A DNA stretch of 64,000 nucleotides, taken from assembly GCA_040218735.1 (NCBI GenBank), contig JAVJQW010000022.1, positions 1 through 64,000 on the forward strand, read 5' to 3'. Of the stretch, positions 4,318-34,370 are shown piece after piece. The position numbers were made by a program, and so were the translations under genes. The DNA is from Deltaproteobacteria bacterium. GTDB lineage: Bacteria > Myxococcota > Kuafuiibacteriia > Kuafuiibacteriales > Kuafuiibacteriaceae. The notes beneath the pieces are model-generated. The model worked only from the letters and a program-made list of their open reading frames with translations, was not told the origin of the DNA and did not search any database. The first letter of the stretch is position 1. Each line of letters opens with the position of its first letter.

Positions 4318-7300
4318 GTGTCGTGGGTCGACCGACTCGCGGCCGTCGCAGACGACGTCGAGCCGACCGACGACATCGGCCCGATCGGGCGCCACCTCGC
4401 CTGGCTCGGCGCTAGCCCCCGCCTCTCCGCCGAGCAAACGCTGCGCGTCGACTTCGACGGCGCGATCGACGTGGACCGGTTCGCCGACGCGTTCGCAGAG
4501 GTTGCAGAGGCGACCGCGATCCTCGACGCGGGTCCGGGCGCGACGCAGATCGTGCGAGCCCCCGACCGAACGTGGGCATCGTCGATCGCCGCCCGCGCGC
4601 GGATGCCGCTCGATCTCGCCGCGAGCCCCTACGCCTCCACCCTGTACGTCGACGGTGACCGGACGCTCTGGACGCTGCGCGTACACGAGAAGGTCGTCGA
4701 CGCCGAGTCGTGCATACGGATCACCAACCGCGTCGCGCTCGCGTACGCGGGGCGCGTCGTTCCGCGCGACGACACCTTCGTCGAGTACCTCCGCGAGGAG
4801 CGCGTCCAACGCTGGGCCGAAGCCGAACCGGCGGACGCCGACGACGAAGCACCGCTCGCGTTCTACGGTGAGGCGGCTCGCTGGAATCGCCTCGGGGTGC
4901 ACCGCGAGACCCACGCACTCGCGGAGAACGCGGGGCTCATCGGGCTCTGGGCGGCGACCGCGGCGTACGTCGCGCGCGCGACGGGTCGAGCCCTGACACG
5001 CACGGCGGTGCCGGCGAGGCTCGGGCGGAACAAGGGGATCGGCGCGATGACGGAGTGGTTCCCGCTCGACCTCGAAGTCGCACCCGACGACACCGGCGCC
5101 ACCCTCGTCGCGCGCGCCCACGACGCGTACGAACGCGCCAAAGCCGAACGCCTCCGTATCGACGAAACGTACGGCCGCCCCGCCGACGTCCGTATCGCCA
5201 TGACGGACCTCCGCATCGACGGGTTCGACGGCGTCACGGCACGCGCGCAGATCGCGCCGAGCCTGTTGGATCGCAACGCCGTCCCTCGTGTGCAGGCCCG
5301 TGACTTCGCGAGCCTGAGCGTCCACCTACACCTGACGCGGGACGGACCGTCGCTGTGTTGTGACCTCGCCGACGACGCGTTCCCGCGCAGCGCGCCCACG
5401 CGCGTCGCCCAACAGATGGCGGCGCTCCTGGACGGCATGCTCCACGAACCCGAGCGGCCGTTGCAGGCGATCGATCTTCGCACGGAGGCGGAGCGCCGAC
5501 GCGGGGCCCCTCGCCTCCCGCCGCCCGCGCCGTCGGTGGCGCACAGGATCCTCGCGAACGCCGAGGCCGCCCCGCGCGCCGTCGCGGTGGAGGACCACCG
5601 CGGTCGCCTCGGGTACGAAGCGCTCGTGCGTCGGGCATCTCAGCACGCGCGCCACCTCGCGGCCCTCGGCGCCAAGCCCGAGGAGCGCGTCGCGATCTGT
5701 CTCGACCGGACGGTGGAGCTCCCCGTCGCGATGCTCGCCGTGCACCTCTCGGGTGCGGCTTTCGTTCCGCTGGACCCGACGCACCCCCGACACCGGACGG
5801 CGCTCGTCCTCGAGGACGCGGCGCCGAAGATCGTCCTGACGGAGTCGAAGCACCTGTCCGTGCTGCGCCCGCCCGCCCACGCCCGCGTCGTGAGCATCGA
5901 CGCCGACCGCGAAGACATCGAGCTGCTCGACGACACCCCCATCGAAGCACCGCCGCCTCCGCCGGATCGTCTCGCGTACGTGATCTACACCTCCGGCTCG
6001 ACGGGCCGCCCCAAGGGGGTGCAGATCGAACACGGCGCTTTTGCGTGTTTCCTGCGCGCGATGCTCGACGTCGTGGAGCTCGACGCGGACGATCGCCTCC
6101 TCGCGGTGACGACGCCGACGTTCGACATCGCGCTGATGGAGCTGATGCTCCCGCTGTACGTCGGCGGCACGGTGGTCGTGGCCCCGGAGCGCGCGACGAG
6201 GTCACCGCGCCGCCTGGCGGATTGGATCGAGCGCGGCATCACGTACATGCAGGCCACGCCGTCGACGTGGAGCATGCTCGTCCAGAACGGGTGGAAGGGC
6301 GCCAAGATCGTCGCGCTGTGTGGCGGCGAACAGTTCCCCATCGACCTCGCGGCGGAGCTGATGTCGCGGACCCTTCGGACGGTGAACGTCTACGGCCCGA
6401 CGGAGGCGACGATCTGGGCGACGGCGCACGAGATCCGTCGGCGCGAGCACACACGCGTCCCGATCGGTCACCCGTTCGCGGGCGTGGACGCGTTCGTCGT
6501 TTCGAACACCGGATGCCCCGCGCCCGACGGGATGGAGGGCGAGCTGTACCTCGCGGGTCCGCAGCTCGCGCGCGGCTACCTCGGGCGAGACGAGGAGACG
6601 CAGCGGCGCTTCGTCGTTCATCCCGCCGACGCGACGCGACGCGCGTACCGCACGGGCGACCTCGCACGTCGTCGGCGCGACGGCACGTTCGAGTGCCTGG
6701 GGCGCCTCGACGACCAGGTGAAGGTCCGCGGCTTCCGCATCGAGCTCGGTGAGCTGGAGGCGGTCATTCGTCGTCACCCGCGCGTCGTGGATGCCGTCGC
6801 CGACGTGCGCGAAGATCACCCGGGCGACCGCCGCCTCTGTGCGTTCGTCGTGTTCGAGGGGGACCAGGGGCCGCCGATGGTCCAGACCCTCCGCGACTTC
6901 CTCGCCGAGCACCTGCCGAGTTACATGCTGCCGTCGAACATCGTCGCGCTGCCGAGCCTCCCCCTCACGCCCAACGGGAAGGTCGACCGGCGCGCGCTCC
7001 GGGCGCCACCCGCGCCCGAGAAGCGGGACCGCGCCACCGTCGTGCGCCCGCGCGACGATCGTGAAGTGCGCATCGCCGCGATGTGGCGCGACCTGCTCGG
7101 CGTCGAGGAGGTCGGCGTGACGGATCGTTTCTTCGACCTCGGGGGCCACTCGCTGATGGCGGTGTCGATGCTGTCGTCGATCGAGAGCGCGTTCGGTACG
7201 ACGCTGGACCCCGGCCCGTTCTTCGAGACGCCCACGATCGCGACCATCGCGTCGGCGCTCGACGTCGAGCACCCCGAGCAAGGCGCCTCGGTGATCACAC

Positions 7301-26691: not shown

Positions 26692-27678
26692 GTGCGGAAG
26701 AAGGGTCTGATCACCTGGCTGGGGATCGCGCTCTCGGTCGCGCTGCTCGCGTGGATCGTCACCAAGTTCGACATGAAGGAGGCGCTCGACGCGCTCGCAC
26801 GTGCGAACCCGGCGTGGCTCGTCGCCGGCGCCGTCGTCTACGCCGGCCTCTTCGCGCTGCGCGGCTGGCGATGGGCGCTGCTCCTGAAGCCGATCAAGAA
26901 GGTGTCGGCGGGGACGGCCGGCGAGGTGTTCGCGATCGGCTTCATGGCGAACAACATCCTCCCCGCGCGCTTGGGTGACGTCGCGCGTGCGTTCGTGCTC
27001 GCGCGGCGCGAAGGGATCACGGCGGCGGGGTCGTTCTCGAGCGTGATGCTCGAACGCATCCTCGACGGCGTCGTGGTCGTGCTGTTCCTGAACGTGGTGC
27101 TATGGGTGGACCCGCCCGCGGCGCCGTGGATCGGGAAGATGTCGTTGATCGCGAGCGCAATCTTCGTCGGCGCGGTGGTGGTCTGCGGACTCATCGCCTG
27201 GAACGAGCGGCCGGTCCTCACGGTCGCGAAGCGGGCGCTGTTCTTTGCGTCCGATTCGCTGAAGCAGAAGGTCTTCGGGCTGATCGTTCGCCTCGCGGAA
27301 GGGCTCCACTCCCTCAAGAGCCTGTCGCGAACGCTGGAAGTCATCGCATTGTCACTTCTCATCTGGACGATCGAAACGTCGGTCTACGTACTCGCAGGAT
27401 ACGCGTATGGCCTCGAAGTTCCGGTGCTGGGGATGGCTTTGGTGATGTCGGTGCTCACGTTGGGGCTGTCCGTTCCGAGCGGCCCCGGGTTCGTGGGTGT
27501 CTTCGAGGGGTTGATCATTCAGGCGGTGGGCCTCTATGGCATCGTCGGACCCGACGCCGTCGCGTACGCGCTCTCGGTGCACATGATTCACTTCGTCCCG
27601 GGCACGCTCCTCGGGCTGGCCTTCTCGTGGCGGAGTGGACTGAAACTTTCCGAGCTCGGGACCGCCGCAGAAGGGTAG
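26692..27678 (+). CDS. Lysylphosphatidylglycerol synthase TM-domain / flippase-like protein
   Basis: RWALLL, NNILPARLGDVAR, ERILD and PGFVGVFE. Confidence 0.85.
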   Translation: MRKKGLITWLGIALSVALLAWIVTKFDMKEALDALARANPAWLVAGAVVYAGLFALRGWRWALLLKPIKKVSAGTAGEVFAIGFMANNILPARLGDVARAFVLARREGITAAGSFSSVMLERILDGVVVVLFLNVVLWVDPPAAPWIGKMSLIASAIFVGAVVVCGLIAWNERPVLTVAKRALFFASDSLKQKVFGLIVRLAEGLHSLKSLSRTLEVIALSLLIWTIETSVYVLAGYAYGLEVPVLGMALVMSVLTLGLSVPSGPGFVGVFEGLIIQAVGLYGIVGPDAVAYALSVHMIHFVPGTLLGLAFSWRSGLKLSELGTAAEG

Positions 27679-27694
27679 AAGAGAAGGAAACACC

Positions 27695-28996
27695 ATGGAT
27701 CTGGCAGTCATTGGAACCGGCTACGTTGGGCTCGTCGCGGGCACCTGCTTCTCCGAGATGGGGCACCGCGTGGTCTGCATCGACAACAACGCGGAGAAGA
27801 TCCGCATCCTCGAGTCCGGCGAGGTCCCGATCTACGAGCCGCGCCTCAAGGAGCTCATCGCGCACAACGTCGAGAAGAAGCGTCTTCGTTTCTCGACGTC
27901 GCTCGCCGAGAGCGTGAAGGGCGCCGAGGTGGTGTTCATCGCGGTCGGCACGCCGCAAGCGGACGACGGGTCGTGTGACGTGTCGGCGGTTCGTGCGGTG
28001 TCGAAGGAGATCGGTAAGGCGATCACGGGCCCGACGATCGTGGTGACGAAGTCGACGGTGCCGGTCGGTACCGCGCCGATGATTCGCCAGATCATCGCGG
28101 AGCAGACGGACATCCCGGTCGACGTGGTGAGCAACCCCGAGTTCATGAAGGAAGGCGCCGCGATCGACGACTTCCTGAAGCCGGACCGCATCGTGGTGGG
28201 TACGGAGAGCGACACGGCGCGCGAGGCGATGACCGATCTTTACGCGCCGTTCAACCGCACCTCGAACCGGATGATCTTCATGGACACGGCGTCGGCGGAG
28301 CTGACGAAGTACGTGTCGAACGCGATGCTCGCGACGCGCATCTCGTTCATGAACGAAATCGCAAACCTCTCCGAGAAGCTCGGCGCGGACGTCGACAAGG
28401 TGCGCGCCGGCGTGGGCAGCGACCCGCGCATCGGCAAGTCGTTCCTCTTCCCCGGCGTGGGCTTCGGCGGGAGCTGCTTCCCGAAGGACGTCTCGGCGCT
28501 GATGAAGATGGGCATCGACCAGGAGATGCCGCTGCAGATCCTCGGCGCGGTGCAGACGGTGAACGCGGCGCAGAAACACGTCATGGTGCACAAGATCGTG
28601 GCGCAGTTCGGGGAGGACCTCTCGGGGCTGACGTTCGGGATGTGGGGCCTCGCGTTCAAGCCACAGACCGACGACATGCGCGAGGCGCCGGCGATTCAGA
28701 TCGCGGAGCAGCTGTTGAAGCGCGGCGCGAAGATCCGGGCGACGGATCCGGAGGCGATGGAGACGGCGAAGAGCATCTTCGAAGACCGCATCGCGCTGAT
28801 CGAGGATCAGTACGAGGTCGCGGACGGCGTGGATGCGCTGCTCATCGTGACCGAGTGGAACGAGTACCGTCGGCCGAACTTCAAGGACCTCAAAGTCCGC
28901 ATGAAGCAGCCGGTGATCTTCGACGGTCGCAACGTGTTCAACCCCGTGCGCATGCGCGAGATGGGTTTCACGTACAGCTGCATCGGCCGCCCGTAG
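27695..28996 (+). CDS. ugd: UDP-glucose/GDP-mannose dehydrogenase
   Basis: GTGYVG, KSTVPVG, SNPEF, GFGGSCFPKD and GLAFKPQTDD. Confidence 0.95.
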   Translation: MDLAVIGTGYVGLVAGTCFSEMGHRVVCIDNNAEKIRILESGEVPIYEPRLKELIAHNVEKKRLRFSTSLAESVKGAEVVFIAVGTPQADDGSCDVSAVRAVSKEIGKAITGPTIVVTKSTVPVGTAPMIRQIIAEQTDIPVDVVSNPEFMKEGAAIDDFLKPDRIVVGTESDTAREAMTDLYAPFNRTSNRMIFMDTASAELTKYVSNAMLATRISFMNEIANLSEKLGADVDKVRAGVGSDPRIGKSFLFPGVGFGGSCFPKDVSALMKMGIDQEMPLQILGAVQTVNAAQKHVMVHKIVAQFGEDLSGLTFGMWGLAFKPQTDDMREAPAIQIAEQLLKRGAKIRATDPEAMETAKSIFEDRIALIEDQYEVADGVDALLIVTEWNEYRRPNFKDLKVRMKQPVIFDGRNVFNPVRMREMGFTYSCIGRP

Positions 28997-28997
28997 C

Positions 28998-29210
28998 ATG
29001 AACGAACGACACGCGCTGGTCCGGCTTCATCGCCTGTTGATCGCGGCGGGGATCGCGCTGTCGATCGTGTTCGGCGTCTACCAAGTCAAACAACTCACCG
29101 CGGGCGCCGACGGCGCGCTGCCTTGGCTCGTCGTCTCGGGCGTCATGGGCGCCGCGCTGACGGCGTACCTGGTGTGGTTCAACAAGAAGATCAAGAAGGA
29201 GAAGTCATGA
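28998..29210 (+). CDS. Small two-TM membrane protein
   Basis: 70 aa with two hydrophobic helices; fills the ugd-SDR gap with an ATGA overlap. Confidence 0.65.
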   Translation: MNERHALVRLHRLLIAAGIALSIVFGVYQVKQLTAGADGALPWLVVSGVMGAALTAYLVWFNKKIKKEKS

Positions 29211-29941
29211 GCGACTCGGTTGCGATCATCACCGGAGCGTCGAGCGGGATCGGCGAAGCCACCGCGCGGGCGCTGGCCTCGAAGGGTTACGCGGTTGCGT
29301 TGGCGGCGCGGCGGGTGGAGCGGCTCGAGGCGCTGAAGGGCGAGATCGAGGCGGCCGGCGGCAAGGCGATCGCGGTGGCGACGGACGTCGCGAAGCGCTC
29401 CGACGTCGAGGCGCTCGCGAAGGCGACGCTCGACGCGTACGGCCGCATCGACGTGTTGGTGAACAACGCGGGCCTGATGCCGCTGTCGTTCATGAAGAAC
29501 CTGCACGTCGACGAGTGGGACCGGATGATCGACGTGAATATCAAGGGCGTCCTGTACGGGATCGCGGCGGTGTTGCCGACGATGATGGCGCAGAAGGGCG
29601 GGCACATCATCAACGTGTCGAGCGTCGCGGGACGTCGCCTGTTCCCGTCGGGCGCGGTGTACTGCGGCACGAAGTTCGCGGTGACGGCGATCTCCGAAGG
29701 CCTGCGCGCTGAGCTCGCGCCGTCGATGGGGATCCGGTGCACGGTGATCGAGCCGGGCGTGGTGCGCACGGAGCTGACGTCGACGATCACCGACGAGGAC
29801 GTGAAGCCGTTCTCCGAGGCGATCCAGAAGATGACGGCGCTCGAGAGCGAGGACATCGCCAACGCGATCGTCTACGCGGCGACGCAGCCCCAGCACGTGA
29901 ACGTGTCCGAGATCCTCGTGCTGCCGACGCAACAGGGCTGA
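29207..29941 (+). CDS. SDR family oxidoreductase
   Basis: TGASSGIG, NNAG and YCGTK. Confidence 0.93.
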   Translation: MSDSVAIITGASSGIGEATARALASKGYAVALAARRVERLEALKGEIEAAGGKAIAVATDVAKRSDVEALAKATLDAYGRIDVLVNNAGLMPLSFMKNLHVDEWDRMIDVNIKGVLYGIAAVLPTMMAQKGGHIINVSSVAGRRLFPSGAVYCGTKFAVTAISEGLRAELAPSMGIRCTVIEPGVVRTELTSTITDEDVKPFSEAIQKMTALESEDIANAIVYAATQPQHVNVSEILVLPTQQG

Positions 29942-30019
29942 CGTCGAAGACGCTTCGAAGAAAAAGATCGAAAAACGCGCTTGATGCTTCGGCGTGGTGA
30001 CCAAGGTTGGTGGACCGTG

Positions 30020-30130
30020 ATGACGGAAGCCCATACGACGAGCCTCACCAAGCGATCGCTGTCGCTACGCAGTCGCTTGTTTCTTTCGTCGCGTTATCTC
30101 GACGCCGACGATCATGGGCTCGTCTCCTGA
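30020..30130 (+). CDS. Putative 36-aa attenuator leader peptide MTEAHTTSLTKRSLSLRSRLFLSSRYLDADDHGLVS
   Basis: ATG 30020 to TGA 30130, translated by hand. Rich in Leu/Ser/Arg/Phe/Tyr/His codons matching the downstream tRNAs, and immediately followed by alternative hairpins and a terminator. Confidence 0.7.
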   Translation: MTEAHTTSLTKRSLSLRSRLFLSSRYLDADDHGLVS

Positions 30131-30170
30131 GTTTCACGCCTCTTCGAGGACGTGAAATGAGGCCGGGCCC
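30037..30170 (+). promoter_or_regulatory. Attenuator helices: protector (30037-30044 with 30117-30124) and antiterminator (30116-30126 with 30159-30170)
   Basis: GACGAGCC/GGCTCGTC is a perfect 8-bp complement. GGGCUCGUCUC pairs with GAGGCCGGGCCC (G-U pairs, one bulge), enclosing the hairpin TTTCACGCCTC-TTC-GAGGACGTGAAA. Confidence 0.65.
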
Positions 30171-30197
30171 TTCGCGGGGACCCGGCCTTTTTCGTTT
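30160..30197 (+). terminator. Intrinsic terminator upstream of the tRNA array
   Basis: AGGCCGGG-CCC-TTCGC-GGG-GA-CCCGGCCT followed by TTTTCGTTT. Confidence 0.85.
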
Positions 30198-30234
30198 CGG
30201 GTTCCACTGAAGCGAACACCACACAACAAGAGCC

Positions 30235-30320
30235 GGAGGAGACGCCGGATGGGTACGGCAATCGCACTGTAAATGCGGTGTGCTGCGCGCACGCTGGGGG
30301 TTCGACTCCCTCCTCCTCCA
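30235..30320 (+). tRNA. tRNA-Tyr(GTA)
   Basis: Acceptor GGAGGAG/CTCCTCC region ending TCCTCCA, anticodon arm TCGCA-CTGTAAA-TGCGG, long variable arm and GGTTCGACTCC T arm. Confidence 0.85.
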
Positions 30321-30456
30321 TGTACGGCCCGTTGGGCCGTAGGGCCGAGTCTCTCCAACACCGCATCGCAGGATGCGTGGGGCGGAAGCACGCCCGTTTG
30401 AAAACCGAAGACGAAGTTCGTTTCGTTGCCGCCCCTAACCCTTTTGGCGGCACGAC

Positions 30457-30531
30457 GACGCGCAAAGGCGAAGAGGTCGAGCCGCCAACCTGTGGAGTTG
30501 GTGCGAACCGGTTCGAGTCCGGTTGTGCGTC
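30457..30531 (+). tRNA. tRNA-His(GTG)
   Basis: G-1 plus ACGCGCA/TGTGCGT-C73, anticodon arm CCAAC-CTGTGGA-GTTGG and T arm ACCGG-TTCGAGT-CCGGT. Confidence 0.85.
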
Positions 30532-30544
30532 CTACCCACGAAAC

Positions 30545-30618
30545 GCTCCGGTAGCTCAGTCGGTAGAGCGGCGGTCTGAAGCACCGCGACGTCGGCGGTT
30601 CGATTCCGTCCCGGAGCA
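30545..30618 (+). tRNA. tRNA-Phe(GAA)
   Basis: GCTCCGG/CCGGAGC acceptor, TAGCTCAGTCGGTAGAGC D arm, GCGGT-CTGAAGC-ACCGC and GGTTCGATTCC. Confidence 0.9.
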
Positions 30619-30635
30619 TCACGAACGAACGCCAC

Positions 30636-30709
30636 ACTGGTGTGGTCCAACGGAGAAAGACGCTTCCGTGCGAAGGAAGAGATTGGAGGTTCGACTCCTC
30701 CCACCGGTA
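30636..30709 (+). tRNA. tRNA-Arg(GCG), unusual anticodon
   Basis: ACTGGTG/CACCGGT acceptor, CTTCC-GTGCGAA-GGAAG anticodon arm and GGAGG-TTCGACT-CCTCC T arm. Confidence 0.8.
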
Positions 30710-30716
30710 TCGACAC

Positions 30717-30791
30717 GCCTCGGTAGGCAAACAGGTAGAGCCGCTCGCCTCAAAAGCGAGAACCTTGCCGGTTCGACTCCGGCCCGGGGCA
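30717..30791 (+). tRNA. tRNA-Leu(CAA) with short variable region
   Basis: GCCTCGG/CCGGGGC-A, GGCAAACAGGTAGAGCC D arm, CTCGC-CTCAAAA-GCGAG and GCCGG-TTCGACT-CCGGC. Confidence 0.82.
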
Positions 30792-30891
30792 TGACGAGCG
30801 CCGCTCCGCGACAATCGACATGTCCCGGACGGCTCGGCCGGCGCGACACGTCGCTGGGAGCGACTCCGGCCCGGGGCATCGCTCGACCACC

Positions 30892-30967
30892 GCCTCGGTG
30901 GGCAATCAGGTAAAGCCGCTCGCTTCAGAAGCGAGAGATTCTGCGGGTTCGACTCCCGCCCGAGGCA
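30892..30967 (+). tRNA. tRNA-Leu(CAG) with short variable region
   Basis: GCCTCGG/CCGAGGC-A, CTCGC-TTCAGAA-GCGAG and GCGGG-TTCGACT-CCCGC. Confidence 0.82.
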
Positions 30968-30999
30968 TTCGCTCGACGACGACGAAACGCAACACCACC

Positions 31000-31075
31000 G
31001 CCTCGGTGGGCAATCAGGTAAAGCCGCTCGCCTAAGAAGCGAGAGATTTTGTCGGTTCGACTCCGGCCCGAGGCA
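31000..31075 (+). tRNA. tRNA-Leu(AAG), A34 anticodon, short variable region
   Basis: Near-copy of the CAG gene with anticodon arm CTCGC-CTAAGAA-GCGAG. Confidence 0.8.
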
Positions 31076-31212
31076 GCACGAGCACCGCAAGCGGCGCTCG
31101 AGAGCCCTCGGACGGGGCGGCCGGCGCGCCTGCGGCGCTGGGAGCGACTCCGGCCCGAGGCAGCACGAGCACCGCAAGCGGCGCTCGAGAGGGGGCTTCA
31201 ACGCCCCACCCT

Positions 31213-31295
31213 GAAAGGCTCCGCCCGGCGGCGGGCAACCGGTCTCGAAAGCCGGGGGGACCTATCGGTTCGGGGTTCGACTCCTCAGCCTTCCG
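31213..31295 (+). tRNA. tRNA-Ser(CGA), one acceptor mismatch
   Basis: GAAAGGC/GCCTTCC-G (A2:C71 mismatch), CCGGT-CTCGAAA-GCCGG, variable arm and GGGGTTCGACTCCTC. Confidence 0.75.
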
Positions 31296-31596
31296 TCATC
31301 TCACACGCTGCGCGTGCGAGAAGACCGAACGCTGGGCTCGGCCGGCGCGCCTGCGGCGCTGGGAGCGACTCCTCAGCCTTGTCGTCATCTCACACGCTGG
31401 GCTCGGCCGGCGCGCCTGCGGCGCTGGGCTCGGCCGGCGCGTGCCCCGCCCACCGTCAGTCCCGGATCGGCGCGCCGCGTCGGTCCGATCGCAACGCGAC
31501 GGGTCTCGAACGCGCGGCGCCCAAGCGGCCGAGATCGTGAGGTTCGTAGGCCACACCCAGGTCTGGCGCGCGGGTTGCTGTAGTGCACGTCAGGCC

Positions 31597-32025
31597 ATGC
31601 GTAGGTGTTCGTTTCGTTCGCTTCTCCTGACGGTTGCGCTCCTCGGCGCCGCCGCGTGTGGGGGTGCCGAGCAGGTGCAATCTCGGACCGTCACGATCGA
31701 CGGTGCGCAGTACGAGCTCGTCGCCCAGTTCGGGCCAGAGCTGTCGCCCGACGAGGTGCAGCGGTTGCTCGACCGCGCCGTGGTCGCGCAGGCGGAGGCC
31801 GTCGCGGAGGCGGCGCATCCGCTGCTCGCCATCGAGGTCGTCCCGCACGACCTGCGCAACGCGACCGATTTCGCGGTCGTTGCGTTCACGGCCGAGACCG
31901 ACCCCGAGGAGGTCGAGGAGCCCGAGGAGCACAGCGGCAAGTCCGAGACGCGCGCCCACTTCGTCCGGCGCGGCGACATCAAGGGTGCGACCGACCCGGA
32001 CGTCGACCCTGCCCTCCCCTACTGA
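31597..32025 (+). CDS. Hypothetical lipoprotein
   Basis: Signal peptide with lipobox AAACGG; host-like codon pattern. Confidence 0.65.
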   Translation: MRRCSFRSLLLTVALLGAAACGGAEQVQSRTVTIDGAQYELVAQFGPELSPDEVQRLLDRAVVAQAEAVAEAAHPLLAIEVVPHDLRNATDFAVVAFTAETDPEEVEEPEEHSGKSETRAHFVRRGDIKGATDPDVDPALPY

Positions 32026-32074
32026 CCTCGCGCCTTGCGATCCCCTCCGGATCCAACCAACATCCCGCGCGCCG

Positions 32075-33352
32075 ATGCGCGTCCTGCACGTCCTCGACAT
32101 CTCCGTGCCGACGCTCGCCGGGTACACGTCCCGGAGCCGCTACATCGTTCACAACCAAGCGGACCTGGGCATCGAGCCCGTCATCCTCACGTCCGCGCGG
32201 CAGCCCAACCCGAAGGGCTGCTCGATGGAACAGATCGACGGCCTGAGCTACCACCGCACCCTCCCCCCGAAGCCCGGCCTCCTCGACCGCGCGCGCGACA
32301 AACCCGGGCTGCGTGAGCTCCTCGAGATCCACCACCTGCGGCGGCGCATCGTGGAGGTCGCCCGGCGCGAAAAGCCCGACGTCATCCACGGCCACAGCTC
32401 CATCCTCGTCGGCATCCCGGCGATGCTCGCGGCCCGGCAGCTCGGGCTCCCCGTCGTCTACGAGATTCGAGCGTTCTGGGAGGACGCCGCCGTCGACGCC
32501 GGCGCCACGACGATCGGCTCGCCCCGCTACCGCGCCACGCAGCAGGCCGAGACCCAGCTCGCCCGCCAGGTCGACGCCCTCGTCGGCATCTGCGCGGGCA
32601 TCCGAAACGAGCTCGTCGAGCAGCGCGGCATCGACCCGGACGACGTCATCGTCGTCCCCAACGGCGTCCAGGCCGAGAAGTTCACACCCCGCCCCCGGGA
32701 CGCCGCCCTCGAGGCCAAGTACGGGCTGAAGGGCAAGACGGTCGTCGCCTACATCGGGACGTTCGCGAACTTCGAGGGCGTCACCTACCTGGTCAAAGCG
32801 CTCATCCAGCTCATCCAGTCGGGGCGCGACGACCTGAGGGGCCTGATCGTCGGCAAGGGCCCGACGTACGAGACCTGCCGCCGCCTCGCGCAAGAGGCGG
32901 GCCTCGAGGACAAGATCATCCACCCCGGGCGAGTCCCTCACTCGGAGGTGAAGCCCATGTACTCGGTGGTCGACATCCTCGCGTATCCCCGCGATCGCCA
33001 GCGCATCACCGAGCTCGTCACCCCGCTCAAGCCCCTCGAGGCCATGGCCATGAAGAAGGCCGTCATCGGGTCGGACGTCGGGGGCCTCACCGAGCTCATC
33101 GCCGACGGCGAGACCGGGCTGATCCACCGGGCGGAGGATACGGACCACCTCGCCGCCCAGATCCAGCGCCTCGCCGACGACCCGGAGCTACGGCGCCGCC
33201 TCGGCGACAACGGCCGGGCCTACGTGGAGCGCGAGCGCCAGTGGCCGAAGATCATCGCGGAGCACTTCGCCCTGTACGACCGGGCCAAGCAGAACTGGGC
33301 GAAGCGCTCCGGCGTCTACCGCGGCTTGTCGTTCGTGACACGTCGCCTCTGA
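32075..33352 (+). CDS. GT4 family glycosyltransferase (resembles the exosortase/PEP-CTERM-associated type)
   Basis: MRVLHVLD..P...GY..R, YEIRAFWEDAAVD and ELVTPLKPLEAMA...SDVGG. Confidence 0.9.
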   Translation: MRVLHVLDISVPTLAGYTSRSRYIVHNQADLGIEPVILTSARQPNPKGCSMEQIDGLSYHRTLPPKPGLLDRARDKPGLRELLEIHHLRRRIVEVARREKPDVIHGHSSILVGIPAMLAARQLGLPVVYEIRAFWEDAAVDAGATTIGSPRYRATQQAETQLARQVDALVGICAGIRNELVEQRGIDPDDVIVVPNGVQAEKFTPRPRDAALEAKYGLKGKTVVAYIGTFANFEGVTYLVKALIQLIQSGRDDLRGLIVGKGPTYETCRRLAQEAGLEDKIIHPGRVPHSEVKPMYSVVDILAYPRDRQRITELVTPLKPLEAMAMKKAVIGSDVGGLTELIADGETGLIHRAEDTDHLAAQIQRLADDPELRRRLGDNGRAYVERERQWPKIIAEHFALYDRAKQNWAKRSGVYRGLSFVTRRL

Positions 33353-33383
33353 TCTCGATCCAAAGTCTGAGGTTTGGTACGAC

Positions 33384-34370
33384 GTGCCCCACGATATGGG
33401 TGCGCCGGGGGTCCAAGACGCCACCATCGACTGGCTACCGCTCGGAAGCGCGGCCGTCATCGACTGGAAACAACTGGGTGCGTCCGCGAGCGTTCGCGGC
33501 GCGATGGCGTTCGGCGCCCGCATCGGCGGCGAACCGCTCCTCTTGAGGACGTGGACGAACGAGACCACGACCTACTACGAGTTCCACTTCCTCGCGTACG
33601 AGGACATGAGCGGAACGATCGTCGTCTCGACGGAGCGCCCCGAGGACACCCGCATCCGCCTCACCGCGACGATCGACGTCGAAGGGCGTATCGGCTACTC
33701 CGACATCAGCGAGTTCACGCAGCACGCGCGCACCGGACTGTACGGTTCGATCGTGCGCACGGTCGACATCAGCAACGGCGACCTCAAAACGGATCACCTC
33801 GACAGCCCCACGTCGGCGGAGGCCGAGATCTTCGAGTACGCGCCCGAGAGCGCGCTGCTGACGAACTGCGGCCAGTGGATCGGCGGCCTGCTCGACGCCG
33901 TCCGCGCACAGCTCCTCGACGGCGAAGTCGCCGAAGACGCGGGCCCCGCCGAACCCGCGCGCCCGCCGCGCTCGGCGCCGCCGCCGCCCGCGAAGAAACG
34001 CAGCAGCAAACGCGAGACCGTCGAGGCGCCGCCGGAGCGACCTACGCCAGCCCCGCCGAAGGAGCGCGCCCCGCCGAAGCGGGCGTCGATCGGGAACCTC
34101 TTCGCGACGACGAACTCGGGCGACTCCTGGGAGGTCACCGAGCAGGAGACCTTCCTCGGCCGCAGCAAGCAGTGCTCGATCGTCCTGAAGTCGCAGCGGG
34201 TGTCGCGCAAACACGCTTCGATCACGAAGGAAGACGACGGCTTCTACATCAACGACCTGGGCGCCGCGAACGGCATCTGGGCCGGCACCGAGAAGATCGA
34301 CCGCGAGCGCATCGTGGATGGGTCCGAGTACATCATCGGCGACGTCCTCGTGAGCTTCTCGCTGAGCTGA
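33384..34370 (+). CDS. FHA domain protein with unknown N-terminal domain and Pro-rich linker
   Basis: C-terminal LGRSKQC...VSRKHA...DLGAANG FHA signature. Confidence 0.85.
   Translation: MPHDMGAPGVQDATIDWLPLGSAAVIDWKQLGASASVRGAMAFGARIGGEPLLLRTWTNETTTYYEFHFLAYEDMSGTIVVSTERPEDTRIRLTATIDVEGRIGYSDISEFTQHARTGLYGSIVRTVDISNGDLKTDHLDSPTSAEAEIFEYAPESALLTNCGQWIGGLLDAVRAQLLDGEVAEDAGPAEPARPPRSAPPPPAKKRSSKRETVEAPPERPTPAPPKERAPPKRASIGNLFATTNSGDSWEVTEQETFLGRSKQCSIVLKSQRVSRKHASITKEDDGFYINDLGAANGIWAGTEKIDRERIVDGSEYIIGDVLVSFSLS

Follow-up and report, generated by a model that had tools for sequence, protein, structure and literature searches.

A leader reading frame whose codons match the genes behind it points to translation-dependent attenuation of a redundant tRNA array

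Why do bacteria and phages carry tRNA arrays that duplicate the housekeeping tRNA set, and how are such arrays silenced until they are needed? We addressed this question at a locus in a 64,000-nucleotide stretch of DNA (the window; GenBank assembly GCA_040218735.1, contig JAVJQW010000022.1, positions 1 to 64,000 of the forward strand) from a Deltaproteobacteria bacterium of the class Kuafuiibacteriia, in which a short open reading frame (ORF), here called the leader, and an intrinsic terminator precede eight tRNA genes. The codons of the leader match the anticodons of the array, and among related arrays the codons of the leaders change with the tRNA genes that follow. From its sequence, the locus is probably a codon-matched, ribosome-mediated transcription attenuator of the trp/his type placed before a redundant tRNA array.

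The extent of the leader, its run of 16 consecutive Arg, Ser, Leu, Phe and Tyr codons (codons 12-27) and its two CAT codons (codons 5 and 32) were on rereading all as a preliminary description of this DNA had given them, and ARAGORN found exactly the eight tRNAs named there (Table 1). That description also held that every tRNA has a cognate codon in the leader. With cognate pairs defined by standard wobble, A34 taken as inosine and U34 reading A and G, 8/8 tRNAs were indeed covered, and 18 of the 35 sense codons were cognate to the array, against 9/35 in each of the frames +1 and +2. Within the run, 14 of 16 codons were cognate, the exceptions being CGA and AGT. We compared the leader with 17,317 ATG ORFs of 31-45 codons from the same genome, whose mean cognate fraction was 23%. 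The leader's fraction was reached by 0.029% of these ORFs and full coverage of the eight tRNAs by 0.25%, and a single one (1/17,317), the leader itself, showed both; its longest unbroken cognate run, 9 codons, was matched by 0.012%. The A/T-ending codons TTT, CTT, CTA, TAT, CAT and AGT in the leader are atypical for this genome, as had been claimed, with 0.9-2.4 occurrences each per 1000 codons of its long ORFs, a rarity that, taken alone, would mean little if the stretch were non-coding. Metagenome contigs of close strains showed three variable sites in the leader. Two of them vary only in the third codon position and still encode Leu, namely 30067 A>G (CTA>CTG) and 30085 T>A or T>G (CTT>CTA/CTG). 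The other, 30113 C>G (CAT>GAT), replaces a His codon, and the strain concerned carries additional sequence between tRNA-His and tRNA-Phe of its array.

The same layout of promoter, ORF, hairpin and terminator, hereafter the module, heads 15 further tRNA arrays, with ORFs of 31-67 codons. Nine of these arrays are in four genomes of the same class, one is on a metagenome contig and five are on viral contigs (L165, L166, L168, L170 and L171; 100-360 kb, 45-63% GC in the fetched stretches). BLAST of the window's array against 20 genomes (those of the family, which here also make up the order and the class) gave arrays of 3-31 tRNAs in genomes G003, G004, G006 and G010, which contain the same unusual short tRNA-Leu. 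In these class relatives we recognised by eye a TTGAYN -35 element and, after a spacer of 16/17 nt, an xAxxxT -10 element; behind them come an ORF of 34-67 codons, a hairpin and a terminator that carries the U-tract motif TTTTTCGTTTC. The ORF starts 7-15 nt after the -10 element, or else follows a longer 5' region in which a strong Shine-Dalgarno sequence lies. In the window the ATG lies 10-11 nt past the -10-like hexamer, and the sequence thus predicts a leaderless or nearly leaderless mRNA; some related modules are equally leaderless, and others have GAGAGGA/AGGAGA before the start. A consensus scan listed no promoter in 29500-32000. From stop codon to U-tract the distance was 49-63 nt in 16/16 modules (57 nt in the window). 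A BLAST search of 61 genomes with the leader region (29945-30235) gave no hit other than the window itself and, in a genome of the same genus, a 41-nt piece of the terminator. The leader thus lacks a sequence homologue in the 60 other genomes, and it is the layout that is conserved, not the leader sequence as such.

If the leaders sense tRNAs through translation, their codons should follow the anticodons of their own arrays. We scored each leader against every array as the fraction of its codons that are cognate, standardised the columns and permuted the leaders (exact or Monte-Carlo). For eight independent modules of the class the exact test gave p = 5e-5 to 8e-4 over three choices of G003 paralogue and two wobble rules, and the signal persisted within this range when A34 was read strictly. 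Fourteen independent modules gave p = 2.5e-5, the 13 without the window, which was the discovery case, gave p = 5.5e-5, and the 12 without the window and the AT-rich viral L166 gave p = 3.8e-4. G003 C21 and C22, close paralogues of G003 C9, were left out of these three larger permutations and of the tests with mechanical leader definitions described next; the eight-module test tried each of the three paralogues. Because leader starts had first been chosen by eye, we also tried four mechanical leader definitions (last 30 codons, last 40 codons, stop-to-stop, longest ATG ORF), which gave p = 2e-5 to 1e-4 without the window. When the same 40 triplets were read in frames +1 and +2, p rose to 0.7 and 0.55, respectively, and the in-frame match exceeded that of both other frames in 10/10 modules tested. 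The covariation of leader codons with array anticodons, for which the preliminary description had proposed a comparison of homologous arrays, is therefore present in 13 other modules and is frame-specific. A covariation tied to the reading frame is predicted by translation-based sensing, and not by base composition or RNA-RNA pairing.

The match can be followed in individual modules. In L162 the array consists of Pro-TGG/CGG/GGG, Arg-ACG, five Leu and two Tyr tRNAs, and the leader MFNPAHNLPARPLPIKGLGYLLLRPIMPRQEDDTLF has 17/35 cognate codons and covers 10/10 anticodons with CCG, CCA, CCC, CCT, CTG, TTA, CTC, CTT, CGA, CGC, CGT and TAC. Several synonymous codons for one amino acid adjoin and match each isoacceptor. 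At G004:C55 the array is Ser, Ser, Ala, Leu, Leu and the leader contains SSSSSSSALALLS, whereas at G004:C66, which has the same terminator sequence and a different leader, the array is Arg-CCG, Arg-GCG, Leu-CAA and the leader has three CGG, three CGC, two CGT and two TTG codons. The viral array L166 (four Leu, Tyr, four Ser, Met) stands behind the leader MNTFNISLLSSSLLSYSLYSELRGVGLKVDM. Over all 16 modules together, the leaders cover 238/261 distinct anticodons of their own arrays (per module 8/8, 17/20, 17/20, 19/22, 16/18, 2/2, 30/31, 1/1, 5/5, 3/3, 10/10, 9/9, 28/31, 34/38, 10/11 and 29/32). Coverage was above the mean of both null models in 13/13 modules tested, with single-module P of 0.001 to 0.25 against random open triplet strings; these nulls use the composition of the window's genome for all modules and are a poor null for the AT-rich L166.

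The RNA of leader and terminator offers the alternative pairings that an attenuator requires. The U-tract motif lies at 30188-30198 after the hairpin 30159-30189, between the ORF and tRNA-Tyr, which agrees with the terminator of the preliminary description. A simple consensus terminator scan did not list the terminator 30159-30198, and folds were used in its place. The fold of 29990-30234 had z = -5.16, with 0/200 shuffles as good. In the minimum-free-energy fold of 30015-30197, the ribosome-free state, segments 1 and 2 form helix 1:2 (9 bp, 30037-30045 with 30116-30124, codons 6-9 with 33-35), together with hairpin A and the terminator. With the 5' part of the ORF masked and the 3' arm of the terminator omitted (30105-30176), segment 2 instead forms helix 2:3 with the 5' arm of the terminator (30116-30122 with 30164-30170 and 30123-30126 with 30159-30162; 11 bp enclosing hairpin A, -33.5 kcal/mol). 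This helix occupies the 5' arm and is mutually exclusive with helix 3:4, the terminator. A hairpin at the position of hairpin A is also present in folds of related modules, and in the pre-terminator folds of modules the antiterminator helix encloses it. In 11/12 modules the end of the best upstream partner of the terminator 5' arm falls between -11 and +13 nt relative to the stop codon; in three further modules it falls at -24, -17 and -1. It is this consistent position, and not the energy, which is ordinary for GC-rich sequence, that supports the antiterminator.

We also observed that many leaders end in Gly/Pro before the stop codon (GLGP, RPGP, YRGP, SGPG, PPPG, KPGI and RPGL in G003, G006, G010:C33, G004:C66, L168 and L170); the window's leader peptide ends in GLVS. 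The Gly/Pro ends probably reflect a GGCCCG-type antiterminator strand, and they might also slow termination.

These elements suggest the following course of events. Transcription would start ~5 nt before the ATG. Smooth translation would bring the ribosome to the TGA (30128-30130), where by position it would cover segment 2, so that the terminator would form and transcription would stop 36 nt before tRNA-Tyr. If a cognate tRNA were scarce, uncharged or damaged, the ribosome would stall in codons 12-27, mask segment 1 and leave segment 2 free; read from the positions, a ribosome in codons 12-24 leaves 30116-30126 uncovered and keeps 30037-30045 from pairing. The free segment 2 would pair with the terminator 5' arm, and RNA polymerase would continue into the eight tRNA genes. 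The new tRNAs would decode the same codons and relieve the stall, closing a negative feedback loop. Since several tRNA species are sampled per leader, the device would behave as an OR gate in which a shortage of any one species induces the whole array. Such a course follows the general logic of leader-peptide attenuation of amino-acid operons as outlined in PMC1183508. Anticodon nucleases, antibiotics, starvation or phage infection may be the natural trigger.

We considered whether the leader could instead belong to a general translation-stress attenuator that opens at any slow-down of the ribosome, for example by antibiotics, the codon match being due to composition or luck. The leaders of large arrays hold almost every codon kind (41/42 cognate at VIR_L168) and would sense any slow-down, the module also stands before an HNH endonuclease gene (G000:C55) and, after a tRNA-Tyr, an EF-Tu paralogue (G010:C36), and two arrays are poorly matched to their leaders. 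However, such a device would not produce a covariation that holds without the window and is gone in shifted frames, nor would it narrow the leaders of small arrays to their own amino acids; furthermore, paralogues within one genome share a terminator and differ in array-matched leaders (G004 C55 and C66; G010 C33 and C36). We regard it as unlikely. It is quite unlikely, too, that the ORF and terminator form a short transcript of their own, be it a small RNA, a micro-protein gene or the tail of the dehydrogenase transcript from upstream, and that the tRNAs arise from a separate promoter or through constitutive read-through, with no conditional control. The U-tract motif is general in the class and GC hairpins are common in many bacteria, and the spacer before the first tRNA is 95-317 nt in 8/16 modules; in 5/16, however, the first tRNA lies -1 to 14 nt past the U-tract, which leaves no room for a separate promoter. 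The module is also kept despite different upstream genes, its stop-to-terminator spacing is fixed, its antiterminator overlaps the ORF end, and the leader peptides share no conserved sequence across modules, which argues against a micro-protein. A shared codon preference of a mobile phage-derived cassette, with the small ORF simply one of its genes, would be in keeping with the phage type of the arrays, the 56-63% identity of the HNH gene in viral arrays and the colinearity of the window's tRNA order with VIR_L168. We consider this very improbable, since the match lies in the amino acids present (Pro/Leu/Arg/Tyr; Ser/Ala/Leu; Leu/Ser/Tyr) and not in synonymous preference, synonymous codons side by side match each isoacceptor, and the terminator geometry would be unaccounted for.

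Some observations nevertheless weigh against codon-matched attenuation. The VIR_L170 array (11 tRNAs) has a Pro/Ala/Thr-rich leader with 13/46 codons cognate, at rank 11-12 of 13-14 in its column, and G006:C1 (2 tRNAs) has a leader with many codon kinds, 3/40 cognate, at rank 6-7; we can only guess that both arrays were recently reduced. Among the G003 paralogues the picture by eye was mixed, as Phe and Asp codons track the Phe and Asp tRNAs and those for Trp, Tyr, Ser and Pro do not. The anticodons are as assigned by ARAGORN, and the wobble rules are assumed. No Shine-Dalgarno sequence precedes the window's ATG, so that translation would begin from a presumed leaderless start. The spacers of 95-317 nt have room for a promoter. 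Antiterminator duplex energies were no better than shuffled in most modules, with at most 3% of 200 mononucleotide shuffles as good in only 3/12. At equilibrium the terminator is the more stable fold, and the model therefore needs kinetic, co-transcriptional control, as in classical attenuators. The module stands before protein genes without tRNA at G000:C55 and G001:C197 and is thus not tied to tRNAs alone. Finally, amino-acid starvation would also stall the ribosome, a state in which extra tRNA would not help.

The attenuators of amino-acid operons (trp, his, leu, thr, ilv, pheA) combine a short ORF, regulatory codons, helices 1:2, 2:3 and 3:4 and a terminator, and sense the speed of translation. 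The window's locus is similar in its short ORF with regulatory codons, its three alternative helices and its intrinsic terminator before the genes. However, the genes that follow are tRNAs and not biosynthesis or charging enzymes, so it is not a plain member of the classical attenuators, and its output would restore the sensed molecule itself. In addition, the leaders of the modules hold codons of up to 38 tRNA species, as opposed to those of one or a few amino acids, and many modules look leaderless. The pheM-pheST and T-box systems likewise couple tRNA charging by attenuation to expression of the translation apparatus; what they regulate, unlike the modules here, are synthetases, and T-boxes bind uncharged tRNA directly via a specifier codon with no need of a ribosome. 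No T-box or other known RNA family scored above cut-off in 30020-30234 (Rfam, E up to 1, search of 27000-34000). What Rfam did list in 27000-34000 were members of the tRNA clan and their antisense counterparts, plus a single weak hit to a small RNA at 30121-30195 (23.9 bits, cut-off 50, E = 0.19).

Extra clustered, horizontally spread tRNA genes that duplicate housekeeping ones have been proposed to serve when translation is impaired (PMC8421152), and the comparison with the cyanobacterial trn operon made in the preliminary description stands for this redundant, clustered and horizontally spread kind of array. It does not extend to the control, which in the Anabaena trn operon acts at the promoter through direct repeats and the repressor TrcR, as given in the available parts of PMC8421152 and PMC10272220, nor to the size, as the window array has 8 genes and not 20-43. 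Words beginning with attenuat-, as well as terminator and small ORF, are absent from the text of PMC8421152, its supplementary figures lying outside the check. The only stress-induced tRNA array studied so far, that of Anabaena, uses a protein repressor. With 8 tRNAs, the window array is below the gene-number threshold of an L-array, defined in the excerpt of PMC4758250 as at least 20 tRNA genes at no fewer than 2 per kb, and shares with L-arrays the redundancy with the housekeeping set. The tRNAs of phage T5, whose anticodon loops differ from those of the host, have been proposed as replacements for host tRNAs cut by anticodon nucleases (PMC10264068, available portion). The array here shows similar anticodon-loop differences from housekeeping tRNAs, but has a codon-matched leader, whereas that portion mentions no sensing or regulatory element. 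Stalling in a short upstream ORF also releases downstream expression at ermBL/ermCL and at the topAI upstream ORF; there, as far as the available parts of the sources describe, it is drug-dependent and often peptide-dependent, whereas here the peptides show no conservation and it is the tRNA genes that determine which codons occur. A full-text search of the main texts in a literature library found no paper on leader-peptide or attenuator control of tRNA arrays. Attenuation of tRNA genes by sensing of the tRNA supply reads as new, the trp-type mechanism itself being known.

On balance, though with less assurance than for the window itself, we favour a broader reading in which large phages, and bacteria with captured array pieces, carry a programmable sensor of tRNA supply. 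The leader would list codons in frame, and if any listed tRNA were lost, be it to anticodon nucleases of the host or of a rival, to host shut-off or to failed charging, the terminator would open and the pool would be replaced. Selection would re-tune the leader as the array gains or loses genes, as the window, G004 C55/C66, L162 and L166 may illustrate, and the sensor would also have been coupled to an EF-Tu paralogue and an HNH endonuclease. If true, this would be a cis-acting, codon-by-codon sensor of tRNA availability giving demand-driven replacement with negative feedback; it would tie tRNA arrays to the arms race over tRNA cleavage and extend attenuation from amino-acid sensing to individual tRNA species. 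The leaders would then be a natural read-out of the tRNAs that an element expects to lose, and a leader of chosen codons, combined with a terminator, could be used in synthetic designs to sense tRNA pools in a compact form.

Table 1. Features of the leader, terminator and tRNA array in the window.
Feature	Position	Strand	Method	Remarks
Promoter-like site	29981..30009	+	inferred from sequence	-35 TTGATG 29981-29986, spacer 16-17 nt, -10 AAGGTT/AGGTTG 30003-30009
Leader ORF MTEAHTTSLTKRSLSLRSRLFLSSRYLDADDHGLVS	30020..30130	+		36 codons plus TGA
Segment 1 GACGAGCCU, codons 6-9	30037..30045	+		predicted to pair with segment 2 when ribosome absent
Regulatory codon run, codons 12-27	30053..30100	+		CGA TCG CTG TCG CTA CGC AGT CGC TTG TTT CTT TCG TCG CGT TAT CTC
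Segment 2 GGGCUCGUCUC, codons 33-36	30116..30126	+		predicted to pair with segment 1 or, as antiterminator, with terminator 5' arm
Hairpin A	30131..30158	+	folds	between stop codon and terminator
Intrinsic terminator	30159..30198	+		stem 30159-30171 / 30176-30189, U-tract TTTTT 30188-30192, then CGTTTC
tRNA-Tyr (GTA)	30235..30320	+	ARAGORN, Rfam	86 nt; 68% identical to housekeeping tRNA-Tyr, contig C54
tRNA-His (GTG)	30458..30532	+	ARAGORN, Rfam	61% identical to housekeeping copy
tRNA-Phe (GAA)	30545..30618	+	ARAGORN, Rfam	72% identical to housekeeping copy
tRNA-Arg (GCG)	30636..30709	+	ARAGORN, Rfam	housekeeping tRNA for the codon box is Arg-ACG
tRNA-Leu (CAA)	30717..30791	+	ARAGORN, Rfam	75 nt, without long variable arm
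tRNA 3'-end copies and GC-rich spacer	30849..31455	+		copies 30849-30878, 31133-31162, 31354-31380
tRNA-Leu (CAG)	30892..30967	+	ARAGORN, Rfam	76 nt, short form
tRNA-Leu (AAG)	31000..31075	+	ARAGORN, Rfam	76 nt, short form; housekeeping set has GAG instead
47-nt direct repeat	31058-31104 / 31145-31191	+		
35-nt repeat family	at 31108, 31329, 31394, 31421	+		
tRNA-Ser (CGA)	31212..31297	+	ARAGORN	86 nt, atypical

The array comprises 8 tRNAs in 1,063 nt, related arrays having 18-40. In Rfam, 7/8 of its tRNAs scored above the tRNA gathering score (34.8-62.3 bits), and the best score of tRNA-Ser (CGA) was to the Sec model, at 35 bits under that family's cut-off of 47. Elsewhere in the genome (11.6 Mb in 70 contigs; ~63-75% G+C in the window) the housekeeping set includes Tyr-GTA, His-GTG, Phe-GAA, Leu-CAA, Leu-CAG, Ser-CGA, Arg-ACG and Leu-GAG. 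The array is redundant, because this complete set covers every codon box of the array. Array copies are 61-72% identical to their housekeeping counterparts. ARAGORN gave only one other Arg-GCG in the genome, of 93 nt on contig C23, which is absent from the Rfam tRNA list. For His, Phe, Leu-CAA and Ser, the array tRNA has C at position 32 of the anticodon loop where the housekeeping copy has T; the array's Arg and Leu-CAG differ at other positions of this loop. The position-32 differences, together with the Arg-GCG and Leu-AAG anticodons, would fit tRNAs that escape anticodon-loop nucleases.

Bacterial tRNA-Leu normally has a long variable arm. The tRNA-Leu genes of the arrays (window; L021-L026, L162, L165) measure 75-79 nt, are without this arm and form a conserved family across genera.

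The tRNA genes of the window follow the order Tyr, His, Phe, Arg, Leu, Ser-CGA, colinear with those of L168, a viral array of 40 tRNAs, and the window's array thus looks like a reduced piece of a phage-type array, with a leader that would now list the remaining tRNAs. Copies of tRNA 3' ends with a shared spacer come after Leu-CAA, Leu-AAG and Ser, and contigs of other strains join or skip at the repeats (30694>31327, 31104>31199); we would guess that the repeats are recombination scars or cassette boundaries. The neighbours of the array are ordinary chromosomal genes (UDP-glucose dehydrogenase, short-chain dehydrogenase, glycosyltransferase), and the next protein gene after it, the glycosyltransferase at 31634-33352, is unrelated to tRNA supply.

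Outside the window, contig C55 of the same genome (~222480-223860) carries a second copy of the module without tRNAs, with a homologue in L027 (G001:C197). The C55 copy has a Shine-Dalgarno sequence, a 41-codon ORF with 19/20 amino-acid kinds and the same terminator type; behind it lie a small ORF and a gene for an HNH endonuclease. An HNH gene (Pfam HNH/HNH_5) follows some bacterial modules and also lies inside arrays, typically after Leu and before Ser tRNAs (L028 1406-1951; L167; viral L168-L172 at 8001). Its relatives, 56-63% identical to the bacterial copy, were inside 30-40-tRNA arrays of viral contigs of 100-210 kb, and three HNH-bearing viral arrays (L168, L170 and L171) begin with the same module. 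The endonuclease may move or maintain the arrays. In L030 (G010:C36, 788-2500) the leader and terminator are followed by tRNA-Tyr and a divergent EF-Tu paralogue in which each of the three EF-Tu domains is present (Pfam GTP_EFTU, D2, D3); the large array of G010 is without Tyr, and its 67-codon leader is without a Tyr codon.

The modules were collected by several routes. Scans for the U-tract motif with GSCYTTTTTCGTTTY at order and class level, on the same 20 genomes both times, added three arrays (G006:C1, G010:C36 and G003:C9). Fourteen extra motif places were examined, of which four were new modules (L028, L030, L033 and L027), L029, L031, L035 and L038 were ordinary terminators after housekeeping tRNAs, and L032, L034, L036, L037, L039 and L040 were unrelated. 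As the motif ends housekeeping tRNA genes (Asn, Gly, Asp and Ser at L029, L031, L035 and L038), it is a lineage habit of terminators and not a mark of the module. A terminator-hairpin pattern gave 120 generic terminators from many phyla, none of which was used. A pattern from the short tRNA-Leu, run on metagenome and viral collections, gave three modules: L162, which was hit a second time as L163; L165, from a viral contig of 110 kb; and L166 (also found as L164), from a viral contig of 360 kb with 45% GC in the fetched stretch. Excluded were L167 (G208), a 25-tRNA array with an HNH gene, an ambiguous leader start and no U-run; L161, an AT-rich 17-tRNA array in which no leader was found; L173, with a 32-codon ORF 24 nt before the array and a different layout; L174/L175, an array with its own TTGACA-N17-TATGGT promoter and no module; L169 and L172, where the array start is outside the locus; and L176 and L177, which have no tRNAs. 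In L170 (~6858-6950) and L171 (~1610-1700) the terminator is directly followed by a stretch that resembles a tRNA, with a CTCCAAA loop; it is absent from the ARAGORN calls and is possibly an atypical tRNA-Trp.

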